64,000 nucleotides of DNA from Minisyncoccota bacterium (GTDB lineage: Bacteria > Patescibacteriota > Minisyncoccia > Phycocordibacterales > Zambryskibacteraceae). A program made the translations under genes and the position numbers. Of the stretch, positions 4,507 to 63,060 are shown piece by piece. Positions within the stretch are counted from its first letter, which is position 1. Every line of letters starts with the position of its first letter. The DNA is taken from positions 27,821 to 91,820 of the forward strand of contig JAGVCW010000021.1 in NCBI GenBank assembly GCA_020059045.1. Direction: 5' to 3'. The notes under the pieces are model-generated. The model did not search any database. It saw nothing but the letters and a program-made list of their open reading frames with translations, and was not told where the DNA came from.

Positions 4507-4923
4507 ATGGAGGCAGATATGTCAAAGAAACTTCGTAAGCAAGTATTGGGCGAGGCTACAACAGTTGTGCGTCGCGTAACATCCGTGCCACAGCGTGAGC
4601 TAGCAGAGTCAATAGGGATTGATATAAGCAATTGCACAATTGAAAATGCAAAACCAGTTATTGCTAATCGGCTTAGAGACGAGGCTTGGGAACTTGTAGA
4701 AAGGAACAGAATAGTTCCAGGATTAAAGTGTCTTTGTGATGGCGTACCATGCATTGTACAAAAGATTGGTAGTACAGCCCGCGGGTGGGGTAACCCTGGT
4801 GCGATAGTTGTAGTTCGTAAGCTTACTGAGCGTCCATGGACCGGCCATGTACGTCCATCGAGACTTACTGAATTCGATTACTCTCACCCAGTTTCCGTCG
4901 AGCCTAGAACCGCTGCCCCATAA
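4507..4923 (+). CDS. Hypothetical protein with a possible helix-turn-helix
   Basis: Probable start is MEADMSKK at 4507 (the ORF track opens at 4435). The segment PQRELAESIGIDISNCTI resembles an HTH. Confidence 0.4.
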   Translation: MEADMSKKLRKQVLGEATTVVRRVTSVPQRELAESIGIDISNCTIENAKPVIANRLRDEAWELVERNRIVPGLKCLCDGVPCIVQKIGSTARGWGNPGAIVVVRKLTERPWTGHVRPSRLTEFDYSHPVSVEPRTAAP

Positions 4924-5045
4924 TTTAGGAGCAGCTTTTTTCTTACCTGTTTTTGATTGAACAACTGCAATTCTCCAAGGATCTTTGGATAATTTTCGTT
5001 ATCCCGTTTTCATCCCCAGGATATTCACGATTTTTTAACCTTAAG

Positions 5046-5073
5046 TTTGACTATTCTACGCTCTCTGTTATGA
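5046..5073 (+). promoter_or_regulatory. Sigma70-like promoter upstream of tuf
   Basis: TTGACT at 5046-5051, a 16 nt spacer, and TATGAT at 5068-5073. Confidence 0.45.
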
Positions 5074-5305
5074 TGTTTCTCACGCTTTTCTCGATAGTAG
5101 TTTTTGGCTTTCCACGCTAGTTGCGGGACGAAACTTGGCCAAAATTTGCAATCAGTTGAGGCGATACTGTCCTTGCTTTGACAGGGAATTTTTTGTTTAT
5201 AAAAAGCATTATTAAAAGAAATTATTATTAGTAGCTCATTTGTATTAGTTGCTTCGGTCCGCTCGTTCTCGCGCAGCGAACCAAAGTAGTTATTACCACA
5301 TTATT

Positions 5306-6514
5306 ATGGCAGATTCACAAGCGTTTGATCGTTCCAAGCCTCACGTAAACGTGGGAACAATTGGTCATGTCGACCACGGCAAGACGACTCTCACAGCAAG
5401 TATTCTTCACATCCTTGATATGAACAAGGATAAGGGATATGGAGCTCGTGTAGAAGCTATAGACAAGATTGATAGTGCCCCAGAAGAGAAGGCCCGCGGT
5501 ATTACTATCGCTCTTCACCACTCAGAGTACTGGACCCCAAATCGTCACTACGCGCACATTGATGCTCCAGGTCACGCCGACTATATAAAGAACATGATTA
5601 CAGGTGCTGCCCAGATGGACGGCGCAGTACTCGTGGTTGCCGCAACTGACGGTGTTATGCCTCAGACTCGTGAGCACGTTCTACTTGCTCGCCAGGTTGG
5701 AGTGCCCAAGATCATAGTGTTTCTTAACAAGTGCGACATGGTTCCTGATAAAGAGCTTATAGATCTCGTGGAAGAAGAGGTTCGTGAACTTCTCACAAAG
5801 CAAGGTTTTGATGGTGCTAATACTCCGATTATCCGTGGTTCAGGTCTCAAGGCACTTGAAGCTAAAGCAGCGGATGACGAGTGGGCAATGAAAGTAATGG
5901 AACTTGTAAACACGCTCGATACTTTCATTCCAATGCCAGTTCGAGAAATCGACAAAGCATTCCTTATGCCAGTTGAAGACATCTTCTCTATTGAAGGTCG
6001 AGGCACGGTGGTAACAGGAAGAATTGAGAGAGGTCAAGTGAAGGTGAACGAAGAGATTGAGGTTATCGGTCTCAAGGACACTGCAAAGACTGTAGTCACA
6101 GGTATCGAAATGTTCAATAAGCAGCTCGATTCAGGTATGGCTGGAGACAATGCTGGTATTCTTCTCCGAGGATTGAAAAAGGAGGACATTACACGTGGTC
6201 AGGTTCTTGCAAAGCCAGGTTCAGTTACACCTCATACGGAGTTTGAATCAGAGGTCTACATCTTGAAGAAGGAAGAAGGCGGACGCCACACGCCATTCTT
6301 TACTGGTTACAAACCACAATTCTATGTTAGAACTACAGACGTTACAGGTGAAGTAACTTTGCCTGAGAAAGTAGAAATGGTTATGCCAGGAGACACAGTT
6401 ACATTCAAGGTCAAACTTGTAGCTCCAGTTGCGCTTGAAGCTCAACAGAGATTTGCTATCCGAGAGGGTGGTAAGACTGTTGGAGCAGGGGTGGTTACGA
6501 AGATAACGGCTTAA
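5306..6514 (+). CDS. tuf: Elongation factor Tu
   Basis: [15 protein letters not shown] and NKCD motifs. Start chosen at [22 protein letters not shown], which aligns with the canonical EF-Tu N-terminus. The ORF track extends 19 codons further upstream. Confidence 0.95.
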
Positions 6515-6639
6515 CAAGTTGAGAAGTTTAATAAGTTGTATAAATTTAATAAGTTTGAATTCAAAACTTATTAAACTTATAAGCACTAGCCAAGTCAGGC
6601 AGATGCGGAACTTATGTAACTTAATAACTAGTTCATTAC

Positions 6640-7026: not shown

Positions 7027-7208
7027 TAGAGAAATAACGAACGAAGTGAGTATATTTCTCATCATCCCTCCCCACTTTCACTGTTGATATTAAAAGAATT
7101 ACTTAACACTGAATGGCCGATTTTAGCTAAAGTTATTTATTAATGTCGTTAGTGAAAGTGGGGAGGGATCACGATTGTTTCTAACTCGCTTCGCTCATAA
7201 GAAAAAAC
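7027..7208 (+). repeat. Intergenic palindromic element, family B, copy 1
   Basis: Starts AACGAACGAAGTGAGTA after the rpsJ stop. Contains an internal 20 bp perfect inverted repeat (CATCCCTCCCCACTTTCACT / AGTGAAAGTGGGGAGGGATC). Ends CTAACTCGCTTCGCTCATAAGAAAAAAC directly before the rplC GTG. Confidence 0.7.
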
Positions 7209-7817: not shown

Positions 7818-7888
7818 GTTGTAGATGTTCTAAATGTTATATATGTCTGACAATTACAACAACTAGAACAATTACAACAATTAGAACC
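7818..7888 (+). repeat. Intergenic hairpin element, family A, copy 1
   Basis: GTTGTAGATGTTCTAAATGTT...TGTCTGACAAT...ACAACAACTAGAACAATTACAACA. The arms around a TGTCWGACA core are reverse complements. Confidence 0.65.
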
Positions 7889-8669: not shown

Positions 8670-9050
8670 ATGGCCCTATTTTCAAAAAAACCCAAAGAAA
8701 AAGTTAAGAAAGACTCTCCAAAGAGTGTTTCACCAGAAGGACCTGTCGCATCAATCGAAACGATGGGTGGTACATCTTTTGCCCATATTCTCTTGCAGCC
8801 ACGTATTACGGAGAAAGCATCTCTCAAGGCAGAGAGCAATAATGTTTATGTCTTTGAAGTAAGCCCTCGTGCGTCAAAAAGTGACATAAGGCAGGCAGTG
8901 AAAGAAATTTATAAAGTGTCTCCAGAAAAAGTTTCTGTCGCACGAATCCCAAGTAAAAGTATTGTGGTTCGTGGTAAGCAAGGTGTGCGATCAGGTGGCA
9001 AGAAAGCCTATGTGTACCTGAAGAAGGGAGAGAAGATAGAGGTAATTTAG
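8670..9050 (+). CDS. rplW: Ribosomal protein L23
   Basis: ILLQPRITEKAS...YVFEVSPRASKSDIRQAVKEIYKV. Confidence 0.85.
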   Translation: MALFSKKPKEKVKKDSPKSVSPEGPVASIETMGGTSFAHILLQPRITEKASLKAESNNVYVFEVSPRASKSDIRQAVKEIYKVSPEKVSVARIPSKSIVVRGKQGVRSGGKKAYVYLKKGEKIEVI

Positions 9051-9225
9051 AAATTCAACGAACGAAGTGAGTATGAATTACTTAACCCCAACAAATTTTA
9101 TAGATACACAATTACCCAATTATTCTTGTGTATTTAATAACCACGAGTTATTATCCTTGGGCAATTTCTCAACGATAAAATTTGAGGGGGTCATGATTTT
9201 CTAATCGCTCTGCTCAAGAAAATCT
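9051..9225 (+). repeat. Intergenic palindromic element, family B, copy 2
   Basis: Starts AACGAACGAAGTGAGTATG. Internal inverted repeat CCCCAACAAATTTT / AAAATTTGAGGGGG. Ends CTAATCGCTCTGCTCAAGAAAATCT directly before the rplB ATG. Confidence 0.65.
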
Positions 9226-10065
9226 ATGAAACATTACAAACCAACAACCAAATCGCGAAGACAGATGACCGGTATAGACTACGGGAAAGTTTTGACCGCG
9301 AAAGATCCTTTGAAAAGTCTTACTCATGGAACTAAGCGTGATGTAGGCCGCAACCACCATGGTCGTGTTACAACACGTCACAAGGGAGGTGGGCACAAGC
9401 GTCTTTTCAGAGACATTGATTTTACATACAACAAATTTGATATTCCATTCAAAGTTTTAACAGTAGAATACGATCCAAACAGAACTGGTTTCATTGGCAT
9501 TGTAGTCTACAAGGATGGAGAAAAGAGATATGTCTTACTCCACAAAGGAGCGCGTGTTGGTGATACCTATATAGTTTCAGCTAAGGCTCCAGAGACAGTG
9601 GGCAACCGCCTGCCACTTGGCAAAATCACAGTGGGTACTTTCGTGTACAACGTAGAAGTTAAACCTCGTGGAGGTGCAAGGCTTGCAAGAAGCGCAGGTA
9701 ACTACATAGAAGTTGTTGCAAAGGATGCAGGCTACGTGGATCTTAAAATGCCATCTACAGAAGTAAGAAAAGTTTTAGAGACTTGCTGGGCGACAATCGG
9801 TGAAGTATCAAACGATGAGAACAGACTAGTAAATATCGGAAAAGCTGGAAGAAGTCGCTGGCTTGGTATAAGGCCTACTGTTCGTGGTTCTGCTATGAAC
9901 CCAGTAGATCATCCACACGGTGGAGGAGAGGGTCGTTCAGGACGCGGACGACGTCGAGCAGTGAGTGCATTTGGCAAACCAACAGGCAAGGGGCAGAAGT
10001 CTCGTACTCCAAAGAAATATTCAAACAAATTTATTGTTCGTCGCAGAAAAGTAGGAAAGAAGTAG
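9226..10065 (+). CDS. rplB: Ribosomal protein L2
   Basis: GRNHHGRVTTRHKGGGHKR...MNPVDHPHGGGEGR. Confidence 0.95.
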   Translation: MKHYKPTTKSRRQMTGIDYGKVLTAKDPLKSLTHGTKRDVGRNHHGRVTTRHKGGGHKRLFRDIDFTYNKFDIPFKVLTVEYDPNRTGFIGIVVYKDGEKRYVLLHKGARVGDTYIVSAKAPETVGNRLPLGKITVGTFVYNVEVKPRGGARLARSAGNYIEVVAKDAGYVDLKMPSTEVRKVLETCWATIGEVSNDENRLVNIGKAGRSRWLGIRPTVRGSAMNPVDHPHGGGEGRSGRGRRRAVSAFGKPTGKGQKSRTPKKYSNKFIVRRRKVGKK

Positions 10066-10186: not shown

Positions 10187-11155
10187 TTATACTGTATCAA
10201 GCACAGCTTGTATCTCTGCGGCCAGTGCATTGGCTTCAGCCGCGTCTCTACTCTCATTTTCCTCAAGTTGAGCAGAGTCAACTGGTACTTCTCCAGGCAG
10301 AAGTGCAAGTTCAGCAAGTCGCAAAGCACCCTCTCTACTCTCGGCTACGATTAGGTATCGGTTTTGGTGGCAAAACACGGCATCTCCTACCCCGGTGATT
10401 TCCTGAAGTTCAAGACCTCTCATACCTGCCCACTCTCTTGGTAACAAGCGAGGCGAAGTTGTATCAGTAGCTCTGTGCCAGCGTTTCACTGTCTGTACGA
10501 GCCAGCCGACCCTTTTGGGGTACACGACGAGGACTATTTCTGGGAAGTTTCTACTTACGTAGTGATCCCAACGGCATGAGTCATCAAGGAGTAAAACCTG
10601 TGGGCTTAAGTGCTTCTCTACAGCTCTCTTGACCACCTCTTCTCCTCGAATCTCTTCTTTTGCGCGGAAGATTGCACCACTTATGTTTGCTCGTGCAAAC
10701 GCAAGAGCAATATCCCAGTCACTTGGCTTAAATGTAGCTACTGCACTTGAAATGCTGTATGGCCGGATTTCACCAGCTTTGTATCTTACCAGAGTATACC
10801 TGTTGTCTGCCGCATCTATGGGTATAACCATGTGCCTCTCAATTTCTTCAGCTATCCGAGTGTCTTGAGCAATTCGCAGTCCGAAATGTTTCCATACAAG
10901 ACCGAAGGCAGCGTATGGAACACCATTTGCTCGTCTACCAGCACCTCCTTGCATATGGTGATCGAAGTCTAGAGTTTCTGGGTTGTACACTCCTCCTACA
11001 TCAATACGTACATTGCTTTCAGCTATTACTCTTGGATCGCGGCTACGCACCACAAGAGCTTCCATGTATTCCGGAAGCAATTGTAAGGCCGCGATCGCGT
11101 ACACCTCGTCTGCATGGATGGGTCCGTCGTGGGTCACAATTTGCACAGACAACAC
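10187..11155 (-). CDS. MYG1/UPF0160-family metal-dependent hydrolase-like protein
   Basis: N-terminal VTHDGPIHADEV matches the GTHxGxFHxDE signature. IDVGGVYNPETLDFDHHMQ matches the DVGG...FDHHQ signature. Length 322 aa. Intermediate GC, antisense to the ribosomal operon. Confidence 0.7.
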   Translation of the reverse strand: MLSVQIVTHDGPIHADEVYAIAALQLLPEYMEALVVRSRDPRVIAESNVRIDVGGVYNPETLDFDHHMQGGAGRRANGVPYAAFGLVWKHFGLRIAQDTRIAEEIERHMVIPIDAADNRYTLVRYKAGEIRPYSISSAVATFKPSDWDIALAFARANISGAIFRAKEEIRGEEVVKRAVEKHLSPQVLLLDDSCRWDHYVSRNFPEIVLVVYPKRVGWLVQTVKRWHRATDTTSPRLLPREWAGMRGLELQEITGVGDAVFCHQNRYLIVAESREGALRLAELALLPGEVPVDSAQLEENESRDAAEANALAAEIQAVLDTV

Positions 11156-11368
11156 CTCAAAATGGGAGTGAAATGCTTCTATAACAAAGGGCAGTACAAA
11201 ATACAGAGTACATATTTTTAGAAAATAGTCAAGATTTGCTAGATTTGCAATAAGTCTATGAGTTTATGGGTATTAGTTATTTTCTCACAATATAAGTGCT
11301 TATTTACTCCCAAAATATGGCCTAAGATAGCCCTTTTTGGGGATTTATGTAATTTAAATCAAAAAGTT

Positions 11369-11397
11369 CTTGACAAATAAATTGTATATGTTATACT
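11369..11397 (+). promoter_or_regulatory. Sigma70-like promoter, TTGACA-16-TATACT
   Basis: CTTGACAAATAAATTGTATATGTTATACTA upstream of the high-GC ORF. Confidence 0.45.
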
Positions 11398-11479
11398 ATA
11401 GGTAGTAGTAAGTAGTACATTTCAGTTGCAGTTCCCCGTTCAAGGTAGTCCACTCAGCACACCTTATGGAGGTATTACC

Positions 11480-12199
11480 ATGGCTAGCAAGAAGAAGCAG
11501 CAGGTAGCAACGAGCCCGGTTCCCAGCATGCAGGCCGCGGTTGCCACGATGGCGGAAGAGGCTCCCGCCGAGAGCAGGCAGTTCTCTTCGAGCCAGCCGA
11601 AGTGGTCCCCGACTCAGTTCATTGAGACCCTGGGGAAGATCAAGGAAGAACTCCCGGCCGCCGTGTCGAACTTCAAGATCGTGAAGAAGATCGTGGGTCT
11701 CGAGATGGACGGCAAGGATGAGATGGCCTTTCGGCAGATGATTCAGCTCGCCGGGGCCGTTGCTACCAAAGCATCCCAGAAGGCGGACGCGGAAGACCCA
11801 TCAAAGGTGTATCTGGATGCCAGGAAGGTCCAGGCTGCGCTCACCGCATGTGAGCGTGCCAATTCCAATCTGGCACGCACCTTCGACAGGTACATCGGGA
11901 ACTGGCGGAAGCGGGCTGACACCATGATGTCGAACGCAAGGCGCAAGGACCCGGACGTGATCGAGCGCGAGAGTGACACAATCGCGGACAACATGGAGGC
12001 ACTGGATGAGGCACTTGAAGGAAAGAAGCCTCGTCAAGAGGTCCTCGAGATCTACAACAGGACCTTCACCCATCTTCGCGAGCTCTCAAAGGAAGCAACG
12101 GCGCTTGCTACTGAAGCTTCGAGGAGAGAGCAGATCGAAACGATCGGCTCACTCGGGGACGACATCCTCGACTCTCTCGCGGAACTCGACAGCATCTAA
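11480..12199 (+). CDS. High-GC hypothetical alpha-helical protein
   Basis: Probable start MASKKKQQ at 11480. About 60% GC with strong GC3 bias, very different from the flanking r-protein genes. No recognised domain. Confidence 0.55.
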   Translation: MASKKKQQVATSPVPSMQAAVATMAEEAPAESRQFSSSQPKWSPTQFIETLGKIKEELPAAVSNFKIVKKIVGLEMDGKDEMAFRQMIQLAGAVATKASQKADAEDPSKVYLDARKVQAALTACERANSNLARTFDRYIGNWRKRADTMMSNARRKDPDVIERESDTIADNMEALDEALEGKKPRQEVLEIYNRTFTHLRELSKEATALATEASRREQIETIGSLGDDILDSLAELDSI

Positions 12200-12217
12200 G
12201 TGCTGCGAGCAGTAGTA

Positions 12218-12258
12218 CCCCACGAAAAACCCCCAAGGTATCGTGGGGTTTTTCTTTT
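12218..12258 (+). terminator. Rho-independent terminator
   Basis: CCCCACGA-loop-TCGTGGGG followed by TTTTTCTTTT. Confidence 0.6.
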
Positions 12259-12472
12259 ATTGCAATTGCGGAGAATACCATGACAGCTAGGCTGCATGGG
12301 ATGAATCCGCAAATACATACTATATGTCGGCGGAGCCGACTCCTCTTGCAACAAAGTTTGCCCTGATGCCTCGTCCTGCTACTCGCCGAGGCTTTGCGAG
12401 GGAATAGCTTACTGCGATTATAGGACGAGGCCAATTTTATTAAGATAATAATCTTTCCTGTATAATTTATAT

Positions 12473-13441
12473 ATGGAATACAAAACTATTATTTTGCCTA
12501 CTAGGCCTCAGGTGGATACTGTTATTTCTATATTCGTATTAAAGCACTTTGGTGAAAGTTTCTTCCCTGGTATTAAGACTGCTAGCTATGAGTTCATGTC
12601 CAACTTACCAGCTGGTGCGAGCGAAGAGAGCTTGGCAGAGGAAGGAAGGCTCCCAATAGATATTGGTGGTGGACGATTTGATCATCACAACAAAGAGGAG
12701 AAAACCACTGTTCTAAATCTTTTGACTAGCTTTCTTGCTCAAGGGAATAATCCTGCTTTAATAAAACTCAAGAAGTTTGTAGAAAGAGATGATTTTTATG
12801 GTAAAGGAATAATATCCTCTGACCCCCTTGATCGTGCTTTCGGTTTGCCCGGGCTTATTGCTTGTCTTAATAAAAAGTATTCAAGTAACCCAGCGAAAGT
12901 GCTGGATATAATTCTTCCAGTTGTTGATGCGTACTACGAAGAAGAAGAGAAGAGGGCAATAGGAATGCCTCTTGAACTTAAGGAGAAAATAGCAAATGGT
13001 AAAGCTAGAGTATTTAATACAGAGCAGAGAGGCAGAAAACTTAAATGCATTTTCATAGAAAGCGATAACATAAGTCTACCGGGTTTTCTTCGATCTAAGA
13101 TTGGAGGGGAGCACGATGTGATTGCAATAAGGCTATCGTCTGGACACACAAATATTCTTACGAGTCTCAAAAATACAGTTGATTTGCGTTCACTCGCAGT
13201 GCTTATTCGCTTACAAGAAGCCGAGGCGCGAGGTGTGAAGCTAGATGGAGTGCCGGAAGATTTAGCAGTACCGGGTAAAATCGATGAAGTACTTAATTGG
13301 TACTACGATACAGCTACTAACTCTTTACTAAATGGTGGTCCTAATCCAAGTGAGACCGACCCAACGGGAATAGCATCTTTCGAATTTGAAAAAATAATGG
13401 AAATAGGGCTCTCTGAGAAACTCTGGTCTCCATCACGATAA
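12473..13441 (+). CDS. Degenerate MYG1-like paralog, or DHH-motif protein
   Basis: 322 aa, the same length as the minus-strand MYG1-like protein. Retains IDIGGGRFDHHNKEE, comparable to IDVGGVY..FDHH. The N-terminal His/Asp signature is replaced by TRPQVDTVIS. Low GC. Confidence 0.5.
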   Translation: MEYKTIILPTRPQVDTVISIFVLKHFGESFFPGIKTASYEFMSNLPAGASEESLAEEGRLPIDIGGGRFDHHNKEEKTTVLNLLTSFLAQGNNPALIKLKKFVERDDFYGKGIISSDPLDRAFGLPGLIACLNKKYSSNPAKVLDIILPVVDAYYEEEEKRAIGMPLELKEKIANGKARVFNTEQRGRKLKCIFIESDNISLPGFLRSKIGGEHDVIAIRLSSGHTNILTSLKNTVDLRSLAVLIRLQEAEARGVKLDGVPEDLAVPGKIDEVLNWYYDTATNSLLNGGPNPSETDPTGIASFEFEKIMEIGLSEKLWSPSR

Positions 13442-13469
13442 GCCAAATACCCTTTATATTAGCCACGTA

Positions 13470-13520
13470 ATGGTCTATAAAAATCCTTGACTTTTATAGA
13501 CCATTATGCTATTATTATAC
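13470..13520 (+). promoter_or_regulatory. Promoter with an embedded perfect palindrome (operator-like)
   Basis: TGGTCTATAAAAATCCTTGACTTTTATAGACCA, then TTGACT-17-TATTAT. The palindrome arms flank the -35 box. Confidence 0.4.
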
Positions 13521-13564
13521 AAGAACAGCAGTTTCACACACCGACCCTTTCACAAGGAGTTTGC

Positions 13565-14155
13565 ATGGTAAAAAGCAAGGAAGTCGTCGACCCCGCATTT
13601 GTCGGAGAAGTGGAAGCGGCGCTCGTGTACCTCACGGTGCCCGGCAATCTGAAGTATCTTATACCCGGGTGGGTAAAAGAGGCGGACTTCTCGAATACTC
13701 CAAAGTCCGAGCGCCAGATGGCCCCACGATCCGATAAGTTGTTCCAAGTTGCACAAGCGAGGATGGATGGGGTGCTCGGGGATCTTGCCGGCGCTGGTTT
13801 CCTCCCCTCTGAAGTGTTTTATCTGAATCGGGATGGTGGCGCGCGGCGGGTTCGTATCACATGCAAGCGCTTTGGCGCACCGCTGACACTCGATCAGGTG
13901 CAGTCTCTCATTCCCCTCACTACCGAGCGGATATGGGATGTGATGGCTCATCGGACGGCTGCTACCAGGAACATTCCATGGGAGCACATTTCGATCAATG
14001 CCGGACGCCCCGATCATGCTCCAGAAGGGGGATTCGAAGCGGTTCGCGTGGTCGAAGGTCGAGTCTCGGTAGTTTCCCTTCTCAACACGGACGAGCTGCG
14101 GAAGGCGTCTGAGTCCATCATCGGCCTCCTCGAATCGCTGCAGATAACACGCTAA
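13565..14155 (+). CDS. High-GC hypothetical protein
   Basis: Start MVKSKEV. GC3-rich. The plus frame is more protein-like than the overlapping minus-frame ORF. Confidence 0.5.
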   Translation: MVKSKEVVDPAFVGEVEAALVYLTVPGNLKYLIPGWVKEADFSNTPKSERQMAPRSDKLFQVAQARMDGVLGDLAGAGFLPSEVFYLNRDGGARRVRITCKRFGAPLTLDQVQSLIPLTTERIWDVMAHRTAATRNIPWEHISINAGRPDHAPEGGFEAVRVVEGRVSVVSLLNTDELRKASESIIGLLESLQITR

Positions 14156-14184
14156 TCCTCCTTGCGATAACAGGGGGGTCAACG

Positions 14185-14215
14185 AGCCAGACAGAAATGT
14201 CTGGCTCTTTTCTAT
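14185..14215 (+). terminator. Rho-independent terminator
   Basis: GCCAGACA-gaaa-TGTCTGGC followed by TCTTTTCT. Confidence 0.6.
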
Positions 14216-16813: not shown

Positions 16814-16903
16814 ATAGCGCTTGTTGTAAATGATGTATATGTTCTAAGTGTCTGACAAATACAACATCTACAACATTTAAAAACATTTACAACAAAATAT
16901 AGT
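16814..16903 (+). repeat. Intergenic hairpin element, family A, copy 4
   Basis: TTGTTGTAAATGATGTATATGTTCTAAGTGTCTGACAAATACAACATCTACAACATTTAAAAACA. Confidence 0.6.
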
Positions 16904-17382: not shown

Positions 17383-17558
17383 GGAGCTTGGCGACTATAA
17401 ATAACCTGACCCCCCATCATTTTTAACAATGAAACCTGAAACATTAAAAAAAGATATTGAAAAACATTTCTATTATAGTATCCGATGAAACATATTTTAA
17501 AAATGATGAGGGATGGTGATTTTCAAAAACTCACTATCGCTCGTTAAGAAAATCAACC
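17383..17558 (+). repeat. Intergenic palindromic element, family B, copy 3
   Basis: Internal inverted repeat CCCCCCATCATTTTTAA / TTAAAAATGATGAGGGATGG. Ends CTCACTATCGCTCGTTAAGAAAATCAACC directly before the rplN ATG. Confidence 0.65.
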
Positions 17559-17930
17559 ATGATCCAACCCCGCTCAATAGTAAAAATAGCAGACAACTCA
17601 GGCGCCAAAATCGGTAGAGTTTTCAAGGTGCTTGGTGGGTCTAAGAAGAGATACGCACGTATTGGTGATGTGGTGGTATTGTCGGTTCAGGTAGCACAAC
17701 CTAGAAAGTCAGTGAAAAAGAAAGACATTTTGTACGCGGTGGTAGCACGTCAGAGAACACCATTTCGCAGACAAGATGGTTCCTACATTCGTTTCGATGA
17801 GAATGCAGTGATAATTGTTGATAAAGCAAAGCACGAGCCTATCGCAGGACGTGTTTTCGGACCGATCCCAAGAGAGCTTGGCGAGATGGGATTCCAGCAG
17901 GTAATATCATTAGCACAAGAGGTAGTTTAG
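17559..17930 (+). CDS. rplN: Ribosomal protein L14
   Basis: MIQPRSIVKIADNSGAKIGRVFKVLGGSKKRYARIGDVVV. Confidence 0.95.
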   Translation: MIQPRSIVKIADNSGAKIGRVFKVLGGSKKRYARIGDVVVLSVQVAQPRKSVKKKDILYAVVARQRTPFRRQDGSYIRFDENAVIIVDKAKHEPIAGRVFGPIPRELGEMGFQQVISLAQEVV

Positions 17931-18149
17931 AAAATCAAGGAGTGAAACGACTATGATTTACTTAACCCCACCTAAATTTTGCATCGAAGACAGAAGCGCA
18001 GTGCGCGGCCGAGTAGGCCAAGCGGTCATGGGCGAAGCGCTGCGCCTCGAAAGGTTTGTGACTATTCGTCACTCGCACTTCTTGTGGTAATGTAAAAGCA
18101 AAATTTAGGCGGGGTCATGATTTTCCAATCGCTCCGCTCAAAAAAATCA
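17931..18149 (+). repeat. Intergenic palindromic element, family B, copy 4
   Basis: Near-perfect 29 bp inverted repeat (ATGATTTACTTAACCCCACCTAAATTTTGC / GCAAAATTTAGGCGGGGTCATGATTTTCC) around a GC-rich hairpin. Ends CAATCGCTCCGCTCAAAAAAATCA directly before the rplX ATG. Confidence 0.7.
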
Positions 18150-18455
18150 ATGAAAATAAAAAGGGATGACAACGTAATAGTGATAGGAGGCAAGGACAGA
18201 GGCAAAACTGGTAAAGTTTTGCGTGCTTTTCCTCGTGAATCGAAAGTTGTCATCTCGGGCGTAAACTTGAAAAAACTTCATAAGCGTCCCACAAAATCCG
18301 GGCAGAAGGGACAAGTCGTTGAGCAAGCTGCACCCATACATGTATCAAATGTTATGATTGTGGATCCAAAATCTGGGAAGAGAACAAGAGTTCTACGCAA
18401 GATGGAAGGAGACAAGAAAGTCAGAGTAGCAAAAAGTAGCGGCACCACGCTGTAA
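18150..18455 (+). CDS. rplX: Ribosomal protein L24
   Basis: MKIKRDDNVIVIGGKDRGKTGKV (KOW motif). Start set at the conserved leader/ATG junction. The ORF track begins at 18117. Confidence 0.85.
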   Translation: MKIKRDDNVIVIGGKDRGKTGKVLRAFPRESKVVISGVNLKKLHKRPTKSGQKGQVVEQAAPIHVSNVMIVDPKSGKRTRVLRKMEGDKKVRVAKSSGTTL

Positions 18456-18532
18456 AGTTATAAATGTTGTAATTGTTGTAGTGTCAGACATTTATAACAT
18501 CTACAACATTTAGAACAATTTCAACATACAAA
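18456..18532 (+). repeat. Intergenic hairpin element, family A, copy 5
   Basis: ATAAATGTTGTAATTGTTGTAGTGTCAGACATTTATAACATCTACAACATTTAGAACA. Confidence 0.6.
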
Positions 18533-19081
18533 ATGCAAAGCATAAAAGAAAAAACTCAAAAAACGTTTTCATCACTTAAGGCCACTCGTGGTTATAAAAA
18601 TCCCATGCAATCTCCACGTATTGTCAAAGTTGTTGTGAGTGTAGGAACGGGCTCATTTAAGGATGCGAAGAAAAAGGAACTTGCCCTGGATCGTCTTACG
18701 AAGATTACCGGCCAGCGCCCATCAGTACGCGGTGCAAAGCAGTCAATTGCCGCATTTAAAGTCCGACAGGGAGACCCGGTAGGACTTGCAGTCACACTTC
18801 GTGGCAAGAGAATGTACGATTTTCTAGATAAGTTAATCCATGTGGCCCTACCTCGTACCAAGGACTTCAGAGGAGTATCTTCTAAAGCTATTGATAAGAT
18901 GGGCAATTACACTCTAGGTATTAAGGAGCACACTATTTTCCCAGAGACAGCAGACGAGGAACTTAAAGACGTTTTTGGGCTAGCAATAACAATAGTTACG
19001 ACCGCAAGAACGAAGGAGGAGACCAAAGAATTTCTAGATTATCTAAGTTTCCCTTTCAAAAAAACAGAAGAGAAGAAGTAA
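18533..19081 (+). CDS. rplE: Ribosomal protein L5
   Basis: NPMQSPRIVKVVVSVGTG...AFKVRQGDPVGLAVTLRGKRMYDFLDKLI. Confidence 0.9.
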   Translation: MQSIKEKTQKTFSSLKATRGYKNPMQSPRIVKVVVSVGTGSFKDAKKKELALDRLTKITGQRPSVRGAKQSIAAFKVRQGDPVGLAVTLRGKRMYDFLDKLIHVALPRTKDFRGVSSKAIDKMGNYTLGIKEHTIFPETADEELKDVFGLAITIVTTARTKEETKEFLDYLSFPFKKTEEKK

Positions 19082-19184: not shown

Positions 19185-19391
19185 ATGACAGAAGAATCAC
19201 TAAACTTAAACGAGACAAAGGAGAAGAGCGCGTTTTCCATGGGCGATCATTCAGATTTTATTGCAAGAGAGCTTGACCAAGTGAATAGGGAGTTACTCGA
19301 TGTAAGTTTAGACATACCAGATGGGGAGGTATCAGGTTTGGAAGAAGTGTATGATGCGATGATAAGGGATCTAAAAATCGAAAATAAATAA
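19185..19391 (+). CDS. Small acidic hypothetical protein
   Basis: 68 aa ORF with TATAAT located 10 nt upstream. Lies inside the rplE-rpsN insertion. Confidence 0.35.
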   Translation: MTEESLNLNETKEKSAFSMGDHSDFIARELDQVNRELLDVSLDIPDGEVSGLEEVYDAMIRDLKIENK

Positions 19392-19410: not shown

Positions 19411-19752
19411 ATGAACAAATTTTTATCTTTAGTAACGCGTATTCTGGGTGAGCTAGAATTTTCGCAAGAAAACAAAGAAAAAGTTGCATATGATCTCAAT
19501 CGCCTAATTATGACAAAGGTTGTCATAGCACTTCTTGATGAGGCCCCAGAGAATGTTCAAACTGAAGTTGAAAAACTTTTAAGTGCTGGTGAAACACTTG
19601 AAGTTGCAAATATCCTCAAGTCTACATTTACGACTGAAAGATTCGAAGAAGTAAGCCTTCATATTACTCGAGATGTGGTTCACAAATACTTAAGCGAATT
19701 GTTTGCAAAAACTCACAAGGAAAACAAAGAGAAACTTGTCGCTTCACTCTAA
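19411..19752 (+). CDS. Hypothetical protein
   Basis: 113 aa helical ORF in the same insertion. Confidence 0.4.
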   Translation: MNKFLSLVTRILGELEFSQENKEKVAYDLNRLIMTKVVIALLDEAPENVQTEVEKLLSAGETLEVANILKSTFTTERFEEVSLHITRDVVHKYLSELFAKTHKENKEKLVASL

Positions 19753-19759
19753 TATTTGT

Positions 19760-20340
19760 GCTGGGCTCTAATAGCACAGTACTTTTGTATAAAAACAAAC
19801 CCGCTCCTTGGTGAGGGCGGGCGATAGTGGGAAGAAAACTTCCAATGGTTTGGAAACTGCATGAAACCGGGTACTTCCTCCCTTTGTCTAGTCAATGGCG
19901 ATTGGGCGCCTATGACATCCTCTTGGCTGTAAACCTCGTAACTCACCATGAGTTACGGCAGGCTAACGCCAACTAAGCTGAGGACTTCGACTGGGCTGTC
20001 TCTGCACGTGGTCCCGAATGAGACGCCTAGTGAGCGAATGACCCGAACGCAGACTACCCGGTTTCACACTTTGTAATGAACTTATATCTTGCACTCTCTT
20101 TCGAGAGATGATTTCGTACCCTGGGGCGGCGAGCGGGCCGAAGCGCCGTCACGACCCCAGGGACTTCCTCGATATTTAACCTCTGATGCCGAGTACCGCA
20201 TCGGAGGCGATCCCCGTTAGGACGTAAGCGAATGCACCGGTTTAGGGCACATCACTGTATCCGAGCCCGCATGGGGGAGCTTGTGAGCTTATGTATATTA
20301 TAGCATGTACACGTTATTTGTCAAGGAGTTTCTCATTATC
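19760..20340 (+). ncRNA. Large GC-rich structured non-coding RNA. The core (about 19800-20070) is a possible reduced RNase P RNA.
   Basis: No ORF, and GC is well above the surroundings. A 10-11 bp long-range pairing joins GAAACCGGGUA (about 19862) to UACCCGGUUUC (about 20053), like the RNase P P4 helix. The segments GGCAGGCUAACGCC and GAAUGACCCGAACGCAGACUACCCGGUUU resemble the bacterial RNase P regions GGCAGG..UAACGCC and GAAUGAC..ACAGAAxCCGGCUUA. Additional strong hairpins are present, including CCCTGGGGCGGCG...CGCCGTCACGACCCCAGGG. Confidence 0.4.
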
Positions 20341-20592
20341 TTTTCTGTGACACATGAAATATGGCTAAAACTAAGGCTTATTTGAATATCACTTTAAAGT
20401 AGAGGGAAATTTGTTGGCAAGTTCTTGAAATTATCCGCTTAACCCTTATTTTATTGACTTTATACGGCTCAATTGCTAAGCTGTTGCAAAGCTTTTGGAA
20501 GCTTTTTTCTTTACTTAATCGCTTCATTCGTCAATATTCTTCCTTTTGAGGGCTTTCGCTCATGCGAGGTCGCTAGAGGATAAACAATATTT

Positions 20593-20778
20593 GTGGCCAA
20601 GAAATCAGTTATAGCAAGATCAGTTAAAAAGCCTAAATTCTCGACTCGCATCGTGAGGCGTTGTTTCCGTTGTGGTCGAAAGCGTGGCTATATGCAAGAT
20701 TTTGATCTATGTAGAATATGTTTTCGCGAATTTGCAAATGAAGGCAAAATCCCGGGCGTTAAGAAATCAAGTTGGTAA
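20593..20778 (+). CDS. rpsN: Ribosomal protein S14, type Z zinc-ribbon (GTG start)
   Basis: 61 aa. [25 protein letters not shown] with two C-x2-C pairs. Confidence 0.9.
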
Positions 20779-20881
20779 TAAAAGATTGTTCTAGATGTTG
20801 TAATTGATATACATGTTATAAATGTCTGACAAATACAACAACTAAAACATTTTGAAACAAATATAACATCTCAAACATTAC
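20779..20881 (+). repeat. Intergenic hairpin element, family A, copy 6
   Basis: TGTTCTAGATGTTGTAATTGATATACATGTTATAAATGTCTGACAAATACAACAACTAAAACA. Confidence 0.6.
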
Positions 20882-21265
20882 ATGGATCCCATCGCTGACA
20901 TGATAATAAGAATCAAGAATGCAGGAGAATCCCGCAAGGATACAGTGGCTTTTCCATATTCAAATTTGAAAGCAAGCATCTGCAAAACTCTTCTAGATAG
21001 TGGATACATAAAATCTCTTGTTATAAAAGGGAAGATTGCCAAATCAATAGAAGTCGGACTTATTTACAACGGCAAGTTCCCAAAGATCCAAGGTGTGAAG
21101 AGACTTTCGAAGCCTTCTCGTCGTCTATACAAGGCCTCAAGTGATCTACGGCCGGTTAAGAGAGGGTATGGATCTCTCATCATGTCTACTCCGAAGGGAA
21201 TAATGGTAGGAGAGCATGCCCGTAAGTCTAAAGTCGGTGGTGAGGCATTATTTGAAATATGGTAA
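20882..21265 (+). CDS. rpsH: Ribosomal protein S8
   Basis: MDPIADMIIRIKNAG...GEALFEIW. Confidence 0.9.
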   Translation: MDPIADMIIRIKNAGESRKDTVAFPYSNLKASICKTLLDSGYIKSLVIKGKIAKSIEVGLIYNGKFPKIQGVKRLSKPSRRLYKASSDLRPVKRGYGSLIMSTPKGIMVGEHARKSKVGGEALFEIW

Positions 21266-21353
21266 TGGCTTTGTCTAAATTTTACGAACGAAGTGAAATA
21301 AAATTTAGTAACAAAACATTAACTCACTATCGTTCGTTAAGAAAATCAACCAC
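21266..21353 (+). repeat. Intergenic palindromic element, family B, copy 5
   Basis: 88 bp, about 97% identical to copy 6. TTACGAACGAAGTGAAATAAAATTTAGT...CTCACTATCGTTCGTTAAGAAAATCAACCAC-ATG. Confidence 0.75.
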
Positions 21354-21887
21354 ATGAGCAGAATCGGAAAAGGAAAAATAGATATCCCAGAGAAAACTGA
21401 AGTTATTCTTCTTGCAGACACTGTCGTGGTAAAGGGGCCATTAGGTGAATTGTCTCACAAAGTTCACTCAGATATAGGTATTGAGATTGCTTCCGGAAGC
21501 GTAACATTTGTTCCCAAAGTTAATACTCTTGAAGCAAATGCTCTCTGGGGCACGACGTCTTCTCACTTGTCCAATATGATAGATGGAGTGAACAAACCTT
21601 TTGAAAAGAAATTAGTTTTAGAAGGCATTGGATATAAGGTAGAGGTAAAGGGAGATAAGATTCATCTTGCACTAGGCTTTTCTCATCCTGTAGAAGTTTT
21701 AATACCAAAAGGCTTGAATGTAAAAGTTGAGAAAAATGCCGTAACGATATCTGGCATTAGCAAGGACGATGTCGGGAGTTTCACAGCACGTCTGCGTGAC
21801 TTGAAGAAGCCGGAACCTTACAAAGGCAAAGGATTCAAATATTTTGGCGAAGTGATCAAGATTAAGCAGGGTAAAAAGTCAGTATAA
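21354..21887 (+). CDS. rplF: Ribosomal protein L6
   Basis: MSRIGKGKIDIPEKTEV...KPEPYKGKGFKY. Confidence 0.9.
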   Translation: MSRIGKGKIDIPEKTEVILLADTVVVKGPLGELSHKVHSDIGIEIASGSVTFVPKVNTLEANALWGTTSSHLSNMIDGVNKPFEKKLVLEGIGYKVEVKGDKIHLALGFSHPVEVLIPKGLNVKVEKNAVTISGISKDDVGSFTARLRDLKKPEPYKGKGFKYFGEVIKIKQGKKSV

Positions 21888-21975
21888 TGGCTTTGTCTAA
21901 ATTTTATGAACGAAGTGAAATAAAATTTAGTAACAAAACATTAACTCACTATCGCTCGTTAAGAAAATCAACCAC
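21888..21975 (+). repeat. Intergenic palindromic element, family B, copy 6
   Basis: Near-identical to the copy at 21266-21353. Ends CTCACTATCGCTCGTTAAGAAAATCAACCAC-ATG (rplR). Confidence 0.75.
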
Positions 21976-22329
21976 ATGAAGACAACTAATCATAAAAGCT
22001 CAAAAAGAAATCGTAGACATACAAAAATCAGGACGAAAGTTTCTGGTACTTCTAGCCGCCCACGTCTTTCTGTATTTCGCTCCAATATGTATCTCTATGC
22101 TCAAGTCATAGATGATGAGAGTGGTAAAACACTTTTCTCCATTTCATCTAAAGGTATGAAGAAGGGAGGTGTCGGGTTTGAATCAGCTCGTGAACTGGGT
22201 AAGACGCTTGCCAAGTCTGTTATCGCAGGCAACATCAAGAAGGTTGTGTTTGATCGGGGTGGATATATGTATACTGGTAAGGTTCGTGCTCTTGCAGACG
22301 GAGCTCGCGAAGGAGGTCTAGAATTCTAA
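21976..22329 (+). CDS. rplR: Ribosomal protein L18
   Basis: RPRLSVFRSNMYLYAQVIDD...VVFDRGGYMYTGKVRALADGAREGGLEF. Confidence 0.9.
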   Translation: MKTTNHKSSKRNRRHTKIRTKVSGTSSRPRLSVFRSNMYLYAQVIDDESGKTLFSISSKGMKKGGVGFESARELGKTLAKSVIAGNIKKVVFDRGGYMYTGKVRALADGAREGGLEF

Positions 22330-29212: not shown

Positions 29213-29379
29213 ATACTACATAAGCTGCATGGTCGGTAAAGCTTTTCATAATGAGGTTTTTGTTTCCTACTGTGCTCTTCACACTTTCCTTATATTGTGT
29301 GAGTAATATAATGTATGAGGGTTATTTGGCATATTATCTAGATTAAAGTAATTTTAAAGGGAGTCCTATATTTCCTCAC

Positions 29380-29496
29380 TTTAATGAAGCCTTCGGGCAT
29401 CTGACAAGTGAGGTTGCGGACACCCACCTGGCAAATAGCTAGGGCAATATGTCCAAGTAACCCACACAAAGAACCCCGTATACGGGATTTTTTGTT
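29380..29496 (+). ncRNA. Candidate small structured RNA
   Basis: CCTCACTT...AAGTGAGG stem enclosing a GCC-UUCG-GGC tetraloop hairpin. Followed by AACCCCGTATACGGGATTTTTTG, which looks like an intrinsic terminator. Confidence 0.3.
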
Positions 29497-35746: not shown

Positions 35747-35760
35747 GAAAAGATAACAAA

Positions 35761-35789
35761 AAATCTTGTCTACTTAGACAAGATTTTTT
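35761..35789. terminator. Bidirectional intrinsic terminator
   Basis: AAATCTTGTCTA-ctt-AGACAAGATTTT with T-runs on both sides, between the giant gene (+) and rplT (-). Confidence 0.65.
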
Positions 35790-35809
35790 GTTATAAAGAT
35801 TTTAGAGAC

Positions 35810-36385: not shown

Positions 36386-36429
36386 AGGAAGCTAATCTTA
36401 ACTATTTTTGGAATATTGTCCAGCACGTA

Positions 36430-36472
36430 CCCCACACTTACTTGGCAGTGAAACTGCCAAGTAAGTGTGGGG
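36430..36472 (-). promoter_or_regulatory. 19-bp perfect hairpin between infC and rpmI (candidate attenuator or L20-binding structure)
   Basis: CCCCACACTTACTTGGCAG-tgaaa-CTGCCAAGTAAGTGTGGGG. Confidence 0.45.
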
Positions 36473-36644
36473 TAACTTAACATAATAATTATTTATATAA
36501 ATCTTTGGCCCTTTTGCAGATTTAAATATTTAGTACAGTTCCTGGTCTTATTAGTACGAATGTGCGAATAGCATTGAATTACCTATACTGATAAATCTTC
36601 ATCTAAAATTCAAAAAATAAAGACCACTTGGTTGTTTGCAGGTG

Positions 36645-41155: not shown

Positions 41156-41243
41156 CCTGAGGGTGTTTTTGCTATTTCGCTCCCAGGTGGTTTACCACGA
41201 GCGAGCCTTCGACCTGGCTCAGGCCAGGGCGAAGCGAGTCGAG

Positions 41244-41678
41244 TGGAGATGGGCGGAATCGAACCGCCGTGCAATAGAAGAGATGAAAGATTTCTACAAG
41301 AGGTAGTTTGTTTCAATCTGCCTGTTGGCAGATATTTAGACTCTGTAAGTATGGAACAAACAAAATCTTACAAAGTCGAGCTTCTACATTTCGGAAACAA
41401 GCAAAGCAATTTGTTTCCAGAGTCTCAAGTTATTACGCGAGCAACTTGTTATGAGACATCACAAGTGCTAACGTCGCTTAGGCCGACCCAGACACCGAAG
41501 TGTCGGGTTAAGAGGCGTAAACGAAAGCGAAATCCTTAGCTCCAAAATATGGAGAAACTAGAGACCCAGCTTTTGCGACAATGCTGTTTGCAATTATCGG
41601 TTGTGGCGGATTTAAGAGTCACCACAGCTCTCCCTTGCATCTATCAAATGAATTCTACTGTCTAGGCCGATCATCCCC
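41244..41678 (-). ncRNA. ssrA: tmRNA (transfer-messenger RNA)
   Basis: Minus strand. The 3' end reads GGCGGUUCGAUUCCGCC-CAUCUCC-A (T-arm plus acceptor strand). The 5' end GGGGAUG pairs with it and includes a G3:U wobble, the AlaRS identity element. An internal frame AUAAUU-GCA-AAC... resembles the E. coli resume-codon context and encodes ANSIVAKAGSLVSPYFGAKDFAFVYAS*. The smpB gene lies 350 bp upstream on the same strand. Confidence 0.65.
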
Positions 41679-48476: not shown

Positions 48477-48497
48477 AAAATATTTATGATAACAAAA

Positions 48498-48528
48498 CTA
48501 CTCCGTCACGCCGTGACGGAGTAGTTTT
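48498..48528 (-). terminator. Intrinsic terminator (perfect palindrome)
   Basis: CTACTCCGTCACG|CCGTGACGGAGTAG with flanking T/A runs. Confidence 0.55.
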
Positions 48529-48538
48529 GTTATAGAGC

Positions 48539-53538: not shown

Positions 53539-53568
53539 GCAAAGGTGTTTCCTGTTTTTTTAAAATAA

Positions 53569-53602
53569 AAACCATTCCCGAATTAAATAGGGAATGGTTT
53601 TC
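53569..53602. terminator. Bidirectional terminator
   Basis: AAAACCATTCCC-loop-GGGAATGGTTTT between the giant gene (+) and recG (-). Confidence 0.6.
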
Positions 53603-53622
53603 ATTTCGCTTAATATAATTAA

Positions 53623-55835: not shown

Positions 55836-55884
55836 GCTCACACTAACTAAAGCACCAAGTCGTACGACTTGGTGCTTTAGTTAG
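55836..55884. repeat. 49-bp perfect palindrome
   Basis: CACACTAACTAAAGCACCAAGTCGTAC|GACTTGGTGCTTTAGTTAGTGT between recG and the SWIB gene. Confidence 0.8.
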
Positions 55885-55909
55885 TGTTTAATACCCCTAC
55901 AGCTTACTA

Positions 55910-58157: not shown

Positions 58158-58560
58158 TTGAAAAGGGATTCGGTCACAGATAATTTTCTGTTGAAAAAGT
58201 TCACCCCACAAGTTTTTGCATACTTGCAAAACTTGCAGGCCCACCTCAGCTCGACAGCTTCCGGTCTTGCGAAAGCTTCAACTATTCGCTTTCTCACCCC
58301 GCCTCGCGCCGTCGCGCTCCGGCTTTCGAATCCCACCTCTCACGCGCCGACGTCCGACTCGAACAGCACATTTGGCTGTTCTTTCCGGTCGTTGCGGAGA
58401 CGATGCCCGGAACTTTGAACCAAAAATACGGCTCAAATTCGAGGATCTTGATAAAAGTATACAGAAACTAAGAGCTATCTACAAAGTCCACCCTGAATGG
58501 TTTGAAGTACCAAAACCCAAATCAACCAAAGGTAAGAACGAGGTAGACTATTCGATTTAG
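58158..58560 (+). repeat. About 400-bp repeat, copy A (partner at 62683-63060), carrying a small ORF
   Basis: Begins GATTCGGTCAC...TTTCTGTTGAAAAAGTTC. The 3' 170 bp is about 85% identical to copy B. ORF 58216-58560 (114 aa) has a C-terminal half ARNFEPKIRLKFEDLDKSIQKLRAIYKVHPEWFEVPKPKS. Confidence 0.7.
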
Positions 58561-62682: not shown

Positions 62683-63060
62683 AAGAATGATTCGGTCACG
62701 AATCTTTTTCTGTTGAAAAAGTTCTCGACCTGGATTTCGAATCTGTTTCGAGTCTTACAGACTCTGTACACCTTTCGTATCGTGCTCGTAAACTGCGCGC
62801 GATGTACTCAAGGTTTTCGAATCTCCCACGTCCCGCTGTGGTGGGACTCCTCTCTCGCAAAATCACATCCCTTAAGAAGGGATAGATTTTGGCGGGGATG
62901 ATGCTCGGAACTTTGAACCTAAAACACGGCTCACGTTCGAGAATCTTGATAAAAGTATACAGAAACTAAGGGCTATCTACAAAGTCCACCCTGAATGGTT
63001 TGAAGTTCCTAAGCCGAAATCAGATAAAGGCAGGAATGAGGTTGATTACACTGAGCTTAA
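62683..63060 (+). repeat. About 400-bp repeat, copy B, with a start-less ORF remnant
   Basis: Begins GATTCGGTCACGAATCTTTTTCTGTTGAAAAAGTTC. The 3' region encodes ARNFEPKTRLTFENLDKSIQKLRAIYKVHPEWFEVPKPKSDKGRNEVDY in the same frame as copy A. An in-frame TAA lies upstream and there is no start codon. Confidence 0.65.

Follow-up and report, generated by a model that had tools for sequence, protein, structure and literature searches.

Within a 64,000-nucleotide (nt) stretch of contig JAGVCW010000021.1, analysed here as a whole and referred to as the window, a GC-rich (guanine- plus cytosine-rich) segment at 19787-20290 lies between the ribosomal-protein genes rplE and rpsN. We propose that this segment is probably an independently transcribed, highly structured non-coding RNA (ncRNA) gene of about 500 nt on the minus strand, belonging to no known family and forming part of a lineage-specific insertion. 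An initial annotation of the DNA had placed a structured RNA of about 550 nt here, possibly a reduced form of RNase P RNA. The large element survived closer analysis, although at a length of about 500 nt (about 19787-20290, with the promoter reaching to 20324), whereas the assignment to RNase P did not.

Composition, fold and strand of the element

The GC content over 19800-20300 is 0.50-0.61, compared with 0.30-0.43 in the flanks, and that of the segment 19787-20290 as a whole is 0.54. The part of the region that would be RNA has a foreign-looking base composition, and both the enrichment in GC and the lack of an open reading frame (ORF) reported in the initial annotation were confirmed. The longest ORF is at most 66 amino acids (aa), and each of the six frames contains 4-11 stops. 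Because these are of mixed type in every frame, an alternative genetic code yields no reading frame either, and this option was ruled out. There was no three-base periodicity (P3 = 0.17, with a GC content of 0.55/0.57/0.51 at codon positions 1/2/3), whereas two GC-rich protein genes from the same window, used as controls, gave P3 values of 5.2 and 2.2. The three longest stretches without a stop (61-65 codons each) tile the minus strand, but their GC content is flat across the three codon positions and their codon log-odds were -0.28 to +0.06, compared with +0.41 and +0.70 for the real GC-rich genes. No tandem repeats were found in the region, and ARAGORN detected nothing there. An apparent internal duplication, together with repeated GAAGU and CAUUCGCU motifs, was at chance level, the copies occupying differing structural contexts, and was rejected.

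The features of the predicted RNA, listed in the direction of transcription, are:

20324-20297, minus strand: sigma-70 promoter, with the -35 hexamer TTGACA (20324-20319), a 16-nt spacer and the extended -10 element TGcTATAAT (hexamer 20302-20297)
19787-20290, minus strand: predicted structured non-coding transcript of about 500 nt, with ends placed from the promoter and terminator
20289-20263, minus strand: 5' leader, which can pair with 19822-19803
20265-20280, minus strand: 5' segment GCUCC...GCGGGC, which can pair with 19803-19822 in a putative stem closing the RNA end to end
20262-20220, minus strand: hairpin A, pair probability 0.57-0.90
20208-20179, minus strand: hairpin B, pair probability 0.97-1.0
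After hairpin B, minus strand: single-stranded stretch UAAAUAUCGAGGAAGU
5' of hairpin C, minus strand: single-stranded stretch AUAUCGAGGAAGU
20119-20162, minus strand: hairpin C, with a CCCUGGGGU/GCCCCAGGG stem and a c(UUCG)g tetraloop, pair probability 0.97-0.99
20094-20107, minus strand: hairpin D, CUCUC-GAAA-GAGAG, with a GNRA tetraloop, pair probability 0.95
Between hairpin D and domain E, minus strand: AU-rich linker of 24 nt
19859-20069, minus strand: domain E, with a closing helix of 15 base pairs (bp) (20069-20055 with 19873-19859) around a three-arm junction
20038-19986, 19985-19917 and 19916-19891, minus strand: arms E1, E2 and E3 of domain E
19839-19856, minus strand: hairpin F, UUUCCAA-ACCA-UUGGAAG, between domain E and the terminator, pair probability 0.76
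19791-19821, minus strand: intrinsic terminator, with hairpin CCCGCCCUCACCAAGGAGCGGG (19821-19800) followed by UUUGUUUUU (19799-19791)

In this prediction the RNA begins with four hairpins, two of which have cUUCGg and cGAAAg tetraloops, and continues with a three-armed domain closed by a 15-bp helix and then a short hairpin. Over the whole region the fold z-score was -5.6 on the minus strand and -3.0 on the plus strand. By comparison, the transfer-messenger RNA (tmRNA) of the window scored -5.8, and GC-rich coding controls scored between -2.4 and -0.1. When the window was scanned in segments of 250 nt (n = 510), the background had a mean z-score of -0.79 and a standard deviation of 1.64; the segment covering the 3' half of the element (19790-20039) gave -4.8 on the minus and -2.9 on the plus strand. 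Pair probabilities exceeded 0.9 for most helices of the minus-strand fold, which also contains several perfect hairpins, as the initial annotation had noticed. In domain E they were 0.92-0.99 for the closing helix and most arm helices, with a value of 0.75 for one helix of 4 bp, and the domain folded identically in isolation, at -86.9 kcal/mol.

The closing helix of domain E is the long-range pairing that had been described as a helix of 10-11 bp resembling the P4 pseudoknot of RNase P. It is in fact a perfect 12-bp helix between TGAAACCGGGTA (19862-19873) and TACCCGGTTTCA (20055-20066), growing to 15 bp on the minus strand, but it is nested and not a pseudoknot of the P4 type. A helix of 12 bp was reached in 10 of 1000 dinucleotide shuffles (p about 0.01). 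The 5' and 3' ends of the RNA may also pair with each other, in a stem with a duplex energy of -21.7 kcal/mol that appears in the minimum-free-energy structures of both strands and competes with the terminator hairpin.

Five independent features (promoter, terminator, folding energy, helix extension and tetraloops) argue that the gene lies on the minus strand. The promoter at 20324-20297 scores 12 out of 12, with the TG of the extended -10 element in addition, and sits at the edge of the GC-rich island, directed into it; it would start transcription at about 20290. It is one of only two sites with this score on both strands of the window. The other, at 42176 to 42147 on the minus strand, precedes the tmRNA gene by about 470 nt and falls inside or next to two small ORFs. 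In addition, 12 of the 16 spacer bases recur in the promoter at 11370-11397, that of a bona fide GC-rich protein gene having a proper ribosome-binding site and terminator, and the core TGCTATAATATACA also drives an antisense cassette at the equivalent junction of a relative (locus L024, see below). At the opposite end, the GC-rich hairpin and U-tract (19821 to 19791) would end the transcript, opposite the terminator that closes the plus-strand genes upstream. The energy of this hairpin is -14.4 kcal/mol, the U-tract is present on the minus strand only, and on that strand there was a weak Rfam match to the terminator part of mmgR/suhB. All energy comparisons favoured the minus strand, and the G-C, U-G and G-U pairs that extend the 12-bp helix to 15 bp form on that strand only. 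Similarly, only the minus strand gives c(UUCG)g and c(GAAA)g tetraloops; the corresponding plus-strand loops would be CGAA and UUUC.

At the level of motifs, an ORF-free structured segment is thus bracketed by its own promoter and intrinsic terminator, as would be expected of an independent ncRNA gene. The initial annotation had alternatively suggested an unannotated large ncRNA embedded in the spc operon. The intrinsic evidence does favour an ncRNA, but it points to the opposite strand: the case for the strand antisense to the ribosomal operon is strong, although not absolute, and the element would form a transcription unit of its own. Since this putative RNA overlaps no gene, and no gene follows it on its strand, it would most likely act in trans as a stable folded particle, either as a scaffold for a ribonucleoprotein (RNP) or as a ribozyme-like RNA. 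Roles in antisense pairing, as a cis-acting leader or as an mRNA are less likely.

Relatives and competing explanations

The L5 protein of the host (encoded by rplE) is at most 76-79% identical to any match in 185,579 species genomes and 5.8 billion proteins. The best L5 matches came from Zambryskibacteria and related metagenome-assembled genomes (MAGs). For comparisons of synteny we used 80 rplE loci from GTDB species genomes. Conservation in related genomes, which the initial annotation had left to be checked, was not found, since neither blastn nor nhmmer revealed a homologue of the element in these 80 syntenic loci. Phages and plasmids yielded chance fragments only (blastn), and a concatenated six-frame translation had no match at E<=10 among the 5.8 billion proteins. 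Six degenerate back-translated 24-mers produced pattern matches in viral and metagenome contigs, none of which was confirmed. A 16-mer from the junction strand gave 104 chance matches in metagenomes, none of which was extended (nhmmer filter), and viral contigs yielded nothing in five additional motif scans. However, the lineage is itself a singleton, so these negative searches do not prove that the RNA is unique; with an L5 just 79% identical in the closest relative, the lack of homologues may reflect sampling.

Several points weigh against a functional minus-strand RNA. The best 250-nt segment of the region ranked only 15th of 510, those ranking above its 3' half including the tmRNA and several with long palindromes. 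Taken by itself, the 5' half folds only weakly (z = -2.1 in 250-nt segments). Some wobble pairs exist on the plus strand only, for example a U-G pair in hairpin B (a C-A mismatch on the minus strand) and three in the end-to-end stem, and for this reason the assignment to the minus strand is not absolute. The searches for relatives used exact-word or pattern methods and, because no homologue emerged by any route, neither covariation nor conservation can be called upon in support. An RNA represented by a single sequence is not distinguishable from a recently acquired, possibly functionless one.

The alternative that survives best, although we consider it unlikely, is that the segment is functionless foreign DNA, the remnant of a GC-rich protein cassette, like those at 11480-12199 and 13565-14155, which kept its promoter and terminator and lost its frame. 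Its GC range and promoter module are the same as those of a protein-coding cassette, and the antisense cassette at the equivalent position in L024 encodes a protein of 96 aa. The tiling of the minus strand by three stop-free stretches of 61-65 codons, and the orphan status of a sequence lacking conservation, would also fit. However, those stretches have no coding signature by their codon log-odds, the six-frame translation matched nothing in the protein collection, and the region folds far better than the coding cassettes do. UUCG and GAAA tetraloops and a 15-bp helix would be unexpected in a decayed ORF, and the promoter remains a perfect consensus.

An improbable alternative is that transcription alone has an effect in cis, by convergent insulation of rplE and the two inserted ORFs that follow it (ORF68 and ORF113) from rpsN onward, or as antisense to read-through, the fold being incidental. 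This would suit the convergent layout and the weakness of the plus-strand terminator after ORF113, and the operon is broken at this point by unrelated inserts in many relatives, L024 having a differently coded antisense cassette at the same place. But an insulator would not need 500 nt of GC-rich, highly ordered structure or stable tetraloops, and neither the RNA nor its terminator overlaps ORF113.

We give somewhat less credence again to a structured element of the spc-operon mRNA on the plus strand, for example a leader or processing site for rpsN. The plus strand also beats its shuffles (z = -3.0 to -4.1), and some wobble pairs are exclusive to it, including those in the end-to-end stem, which there has a probability of about 1.0. 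Nevertheless, the plus strand lacks a usable promoter, and just upstream of the element it has a terminator-like hairpin; about 270 nt of AT-rich sequence, with a promoter-like site of its own, separates the element from rpsN. The plus strand was the worse folder in every energy comparison, its loops would read CGAA and UUUC, and no such element was present at this junction in the 80 relatives.

Comparison with RNase P RNA and other known families

The assignment made in the initial annotation, if extended to either strand, would make the element the organism's own RNase P RNA, diverged beyond the Rfam models and with the long helix serving as P4. This now appears very improbable. In its favour, 10 of 35 complete genomes of the Candidate Phyla Radiation (CPR) have no RNase P RNA above the Rfam cutoffs, and the genes that were recovered are heavily remodelled (Lui et al., PMC8172020), the CPR RNAs often being diverged. 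No rnpB was found elsewhere in the window, even at E<=10, and the size and base composition are about right for a stable RNA. Short strings are also suggestive: GAGGAAGUCC on the minus strand (20170-20161) resembles conserved region I (CR-I) minus one A, and GAAUGAC..CAGA..CCCGGUUU on the plus strand resembles CR-IV/V.

On the other side, Rfam scans of 1001 nt, of 508 nt and of the whole window, the covariance-model check that followed from the initial annotation, returned no RNase P model (bacterial A or B, archaeal or type T) at E<=10 on either strand. In these scans E<=10 corresponds to roughly 13 bits or more, and the filters are permissive on 0.5-1 kb. In the published CPR examples helices are missing or extended, yet RF00010 still found them (PMC8172020). 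The CR-I motif GAGGAAAGUCC was not found in the region within one mismatch, and the nearest string, GAGGAAGUCC, is paired locally in hairpin C with a probability of 0.99, a closed hairpin that leaves it no distal partner strand.

The reported resemblance to the conserved regions of RNase P RNA also proved to be at chance level. Local alignment of the plus strand to Escherichia coli rnpB (a reference confirmed as authentic, with 100% identity and an rnpB annotation) gave a best score of 20 (GCCTAGTGAGCGAATG), which was equalled or bettered by 185 of 500 shuffles. The minus strand scored 26, with TGAAACCGGGTAGTCTGC matching TGAACCCGGGTAGGCTGC at 16 of 18 positions, a result matched by 13 of 500 shuffles. 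Both resemblances centre on a palindromic CCGGG core.

The architecture is equally discouraging. The long helix is nested and bulge-free, with no bulged U, and encloses three simple hairpins in 181 nt, about 200 nt of further structured RNA lying outside it; inspection of both strands revealed no P1 or P2 partners for it. If read on the plus strand, the helix would contain no P5/P7-P11 cruciform, and about 220 nt of extra structure would extend past the supposed 3' end. If read on the minus strand, the CR-I-like and partner strands come in the opposite order, and it is the 3' rather than the 5' strand of the helix that the second GAGGAAGU precedes. In summary, the candidate is like bacterial RNase P RNA (RF00010/RF00011, and the CPR forms in PMC8172020) in being a GC-rich structured RNA of several hundred nt in an AT-rich CPR genome, with a long-range helix built on CCGGG and short strings recalling CR-I, CR-IV and CR-V. 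It is unlike RNase P RNA in having no covariance-model score, no significant similarity, no bulge, no specificity-domain or P1/P2 architecture, and an arrangement of motifs that is incompatible with P4 on either strand.

No other Rfam family matched the element at gathering thresholds, and scans of the region, the window and 17 related loci revealed nothing of relevance to it. At E<=10 the element had weak partial matches alone. These were to the terminator-like part of mmgR (16.8-21.4 bits, gathering threshold 41) and to Pab19 (20 bits, gathering threshold 55). For the element there was no covariance-model match to OLE, ROOL, GOLLD, HEARO, raiA, 6S, SRP, tmRNA, group I or II introns, or riboswitches. 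GC-rich, ORF-free islands are the criterion by which classes of the OLE, ROOL, GOLLD, raiA and HEARO type were found, and the candidate resembles them in being a stand-alone, multi-domain RNA of several hundred nt in such an island. However, those classes have many covarying homologues, whereas this is a single sequence with no Rfam match. With the tmRNA of the window (41241-41678, minus strand), it has in common a GC-enriched island, a similar fold z-score (-5.6 versus -5.8 for the tmRNA) and pairing of the 5' and 3' ends. But the tmRNA is clearly recognized, with 101.5 bits for its family, while ARAGORN found neither a tRNA-like end nor a tag ORF in the candidate.

The least credible reading makes the transcript an mRNA for tiny peptides (a 32-aa ORF from GUG 20152 and a 37-aa ORF from AUG 19862, each after GAGGAAGU), because, although a 21-nt motif (GAGGAAGU.CC.GG..UC.UG) is repeated and places a Shine-Dalgarno-like GAGG 14 nt before a start codon twice, that spacing is too long, both start codons are inside stable helices, the second ORF extends across the terminator, neither a coding signature nor a homologue was found, and chance alone should produce repeats as long and as good as these in 500 nt.

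The rplE-rpsN junction and the ribosomal-protein cluster

The host is a Paceibacteria/Parcubacteria bacterium, and the neighbours in the window include EF-G, EF-Tu, ribosomal proteins, SecY, adenylate kinase, methionine aminopeptidase, IF-3, FtsH, RecG and GMP synthase. The genes and other features flanking the candidate RNA gene are:

18533-19081: rplE, in the ribosomal-protein cluster
19185-19391, plus strand: ORF68, the opening gene of the insertion, encoding an acidic orphan protein of 68 aa
19411-19752, plus strand: ORF113, a 113-aa all-helical orphan with a coding signature, convergent with the RNA gene
19756-19779, plus strand: weak terminator-like hairpin after ORF113, opposite the terminator of the RNA gene in a convergent layout
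20593-20778: rpsN, zinc-type, in the ribosomal-protein cluster

The insertion between rplE and rpsN described in the initial annotation is real. The gap is 1511 nt in the window, compared with 10-200 nt in most relatives having both genes, and it contains the two plus-strand ORFs, the GC-rich segment and then the AT-rich stretch of about 270 nt before rpsN. The RNA would have arrived within this lineage-specific insertion of 1.5 kb, which splits the junction. ORF68 has a coding-like composition (GC content 0.51/0.26/0.39 at codon positions 1/2/3), but no match in Pfam, PHROG or PADLOC, and it was not present in the 80 related loci. ORF113 also lacks a family match in these databases, and its sole match among the 5.8 billion proteins was itself. 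An AlphaFold2 single-sequence model of ORF113 is a confident bundle of six helices, with a predicted local distance difference test score of 81.6; this predicted fold had no match in the PDB, in addition to there being no sequence match. Pfam, PHROG and PADLOC scans of the window proteins detected no reverse transcriptase, transposase, nuclease, IscB/TnpB, Cas or similar partner. Possible transposon ends, terminal inverted repeats at 19713-19736 and 20327-20350, were of chance-level quality, with one arm inside ORF113, and were rejected. So was a possible target-site duplication, the 10-nt direct repeat AATATTTGTG (19751 and 20586), whose quality is that expected by chance.

At the same junction, relatives carry assorted unrelated inserts, and their enlarged gaps, some with ordinary genes, are unrelated to the window's RNA. 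In a Kaiserbacteria MAG (L029), the rplE-rpsN gap of 866 nt (4529-5394) is full of terminator-like palindromic hairpins (z = -8.1), again unrelated to the RNA. The closest parallel in layout is in the Wolfebacteria MAG NORP124 (L024; NVTD01000039.1), where an antisense cassette at 2460-2900 consists of a perfect TTGACA-17-TGnTATAAT promoter (2897 to 2869), an almost leaderless ORF of 96 aa (2857 to 2570) and a terminator with an 18-bp stem (2505 to 2466). It is like the window cassette in position, in antisense orientation, in its perfect promoter (TTGACA-N17-TGnTATAAT) with the common core, and in having a strong terminator. It differs in that it encodes a protein, while the window cassette has no ORF, and the two have no sequence in common. 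These inserts, the L024 cassette among them, indicate that self-contained cassettes arrive at the rplE-rpsN junction again and again.

Insertions have entered the ribosomal cluster of this organism more than once. A second, larger interruption, between rplB and rpsS (10187-14215), contains a MYG1/UPF0160 gene (10187-11155, minus strand), a MYG1-like gene (12473-13441) and two GC-rich (57-58%) genes, each with a strong promoter and a terminator of its own. One encodes 239 aa (11480-12199; promoter at 11370-11397, terminator at about 12213-12250), the other 196 aa (13565-14155; promoter at about 13487, terminator at about 14183-14215), and no Pfam, PHROG or PADLOC match was obtained for either. 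The promoter module of the putative RNA gene is thus common to it and another GC-rich cassette in the same cluster. Following the first GC-rich cassette, the intergenic region 12250-12470 lies in well-folding 250-nt segments (12040-12289 and 12290-12539, plus strand, z = -5.3 and -4.5); it has no plus-strand ORF of 70 aa or more and may be a small structured RNA or a complex terminator. The rplN-rplX spacer contains a GC-rich element of 186 nt (17931-18116, -71.8 kcal/mol) on the operon strand, and a Zambryskibacteria relative (L008) has an enlarged rplN-rplX gap with weak similarity to it (nhmmer E = 0.16).

The spacers between the ribosomal genes also contain families of AT-rich repeats (30-95 nt, 74-98% identity), which may be leader or promoter modules or small mobile repeats. 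Copies occur at 7818-7887, 16822-16894, 18457-18534 and 20796-20868; one of 95 nt (21263-21357 and 21885-21979) is present on each side of rplF. Further sets comprise 17528-17559, 21321-21352 and 21943-21974; 9038-9099 and 17918-17980; and 9177-9231 and 18100-18155. Elsewhere in the window, 6S RNA was matched below threshold in the intergenic region 29311-29470 (plus strand; 26.4 bits, gathering threshold 46.4, E = 0.22), the surrounding 250-nt segment having a z-score of -4.6. Perfect or near-perfect palindromes of 42-107 nt occur at 55840-55887, 48489-48533, 36428-36474, 35753-35794, 53563-53606, 6539-6581 and 7064-7169. They are mostly intergenic in appearance and are probably bidirectional terminators, and four of the six best-folding 250-nt segments contain one each. 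A direct repeat of 157 nt with 87% identity (58394-58550 and 62892-63048) has its copies about 4.5 kb apart.

Returning to the candidate ncRNA gene, a bolder proposal, which we offer only tentatively, is that it is the first member of a new class of large structured RNA in Paceibacteria, highly expressed from its consensus promoter and acting as a ribozyme or RNP core, or else an RNase P RNA remodelled past all landmarks, the relatives being too diverged or too poorly sampled for word-based searches. CPR genomes are tiny, with little room for non-essential sequence. A strongly promoted, folded RNA of 500 nt in the ribosomal cluster of such a genome would, if real and functional, therefore be a good lead to new RNA biology. 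The ribosomal-protein cluster of this lineage is also a place where self-contained expression cassettes land, the window having at least three with foreign GC content, and this bears on how reduced genomes acquire genes.

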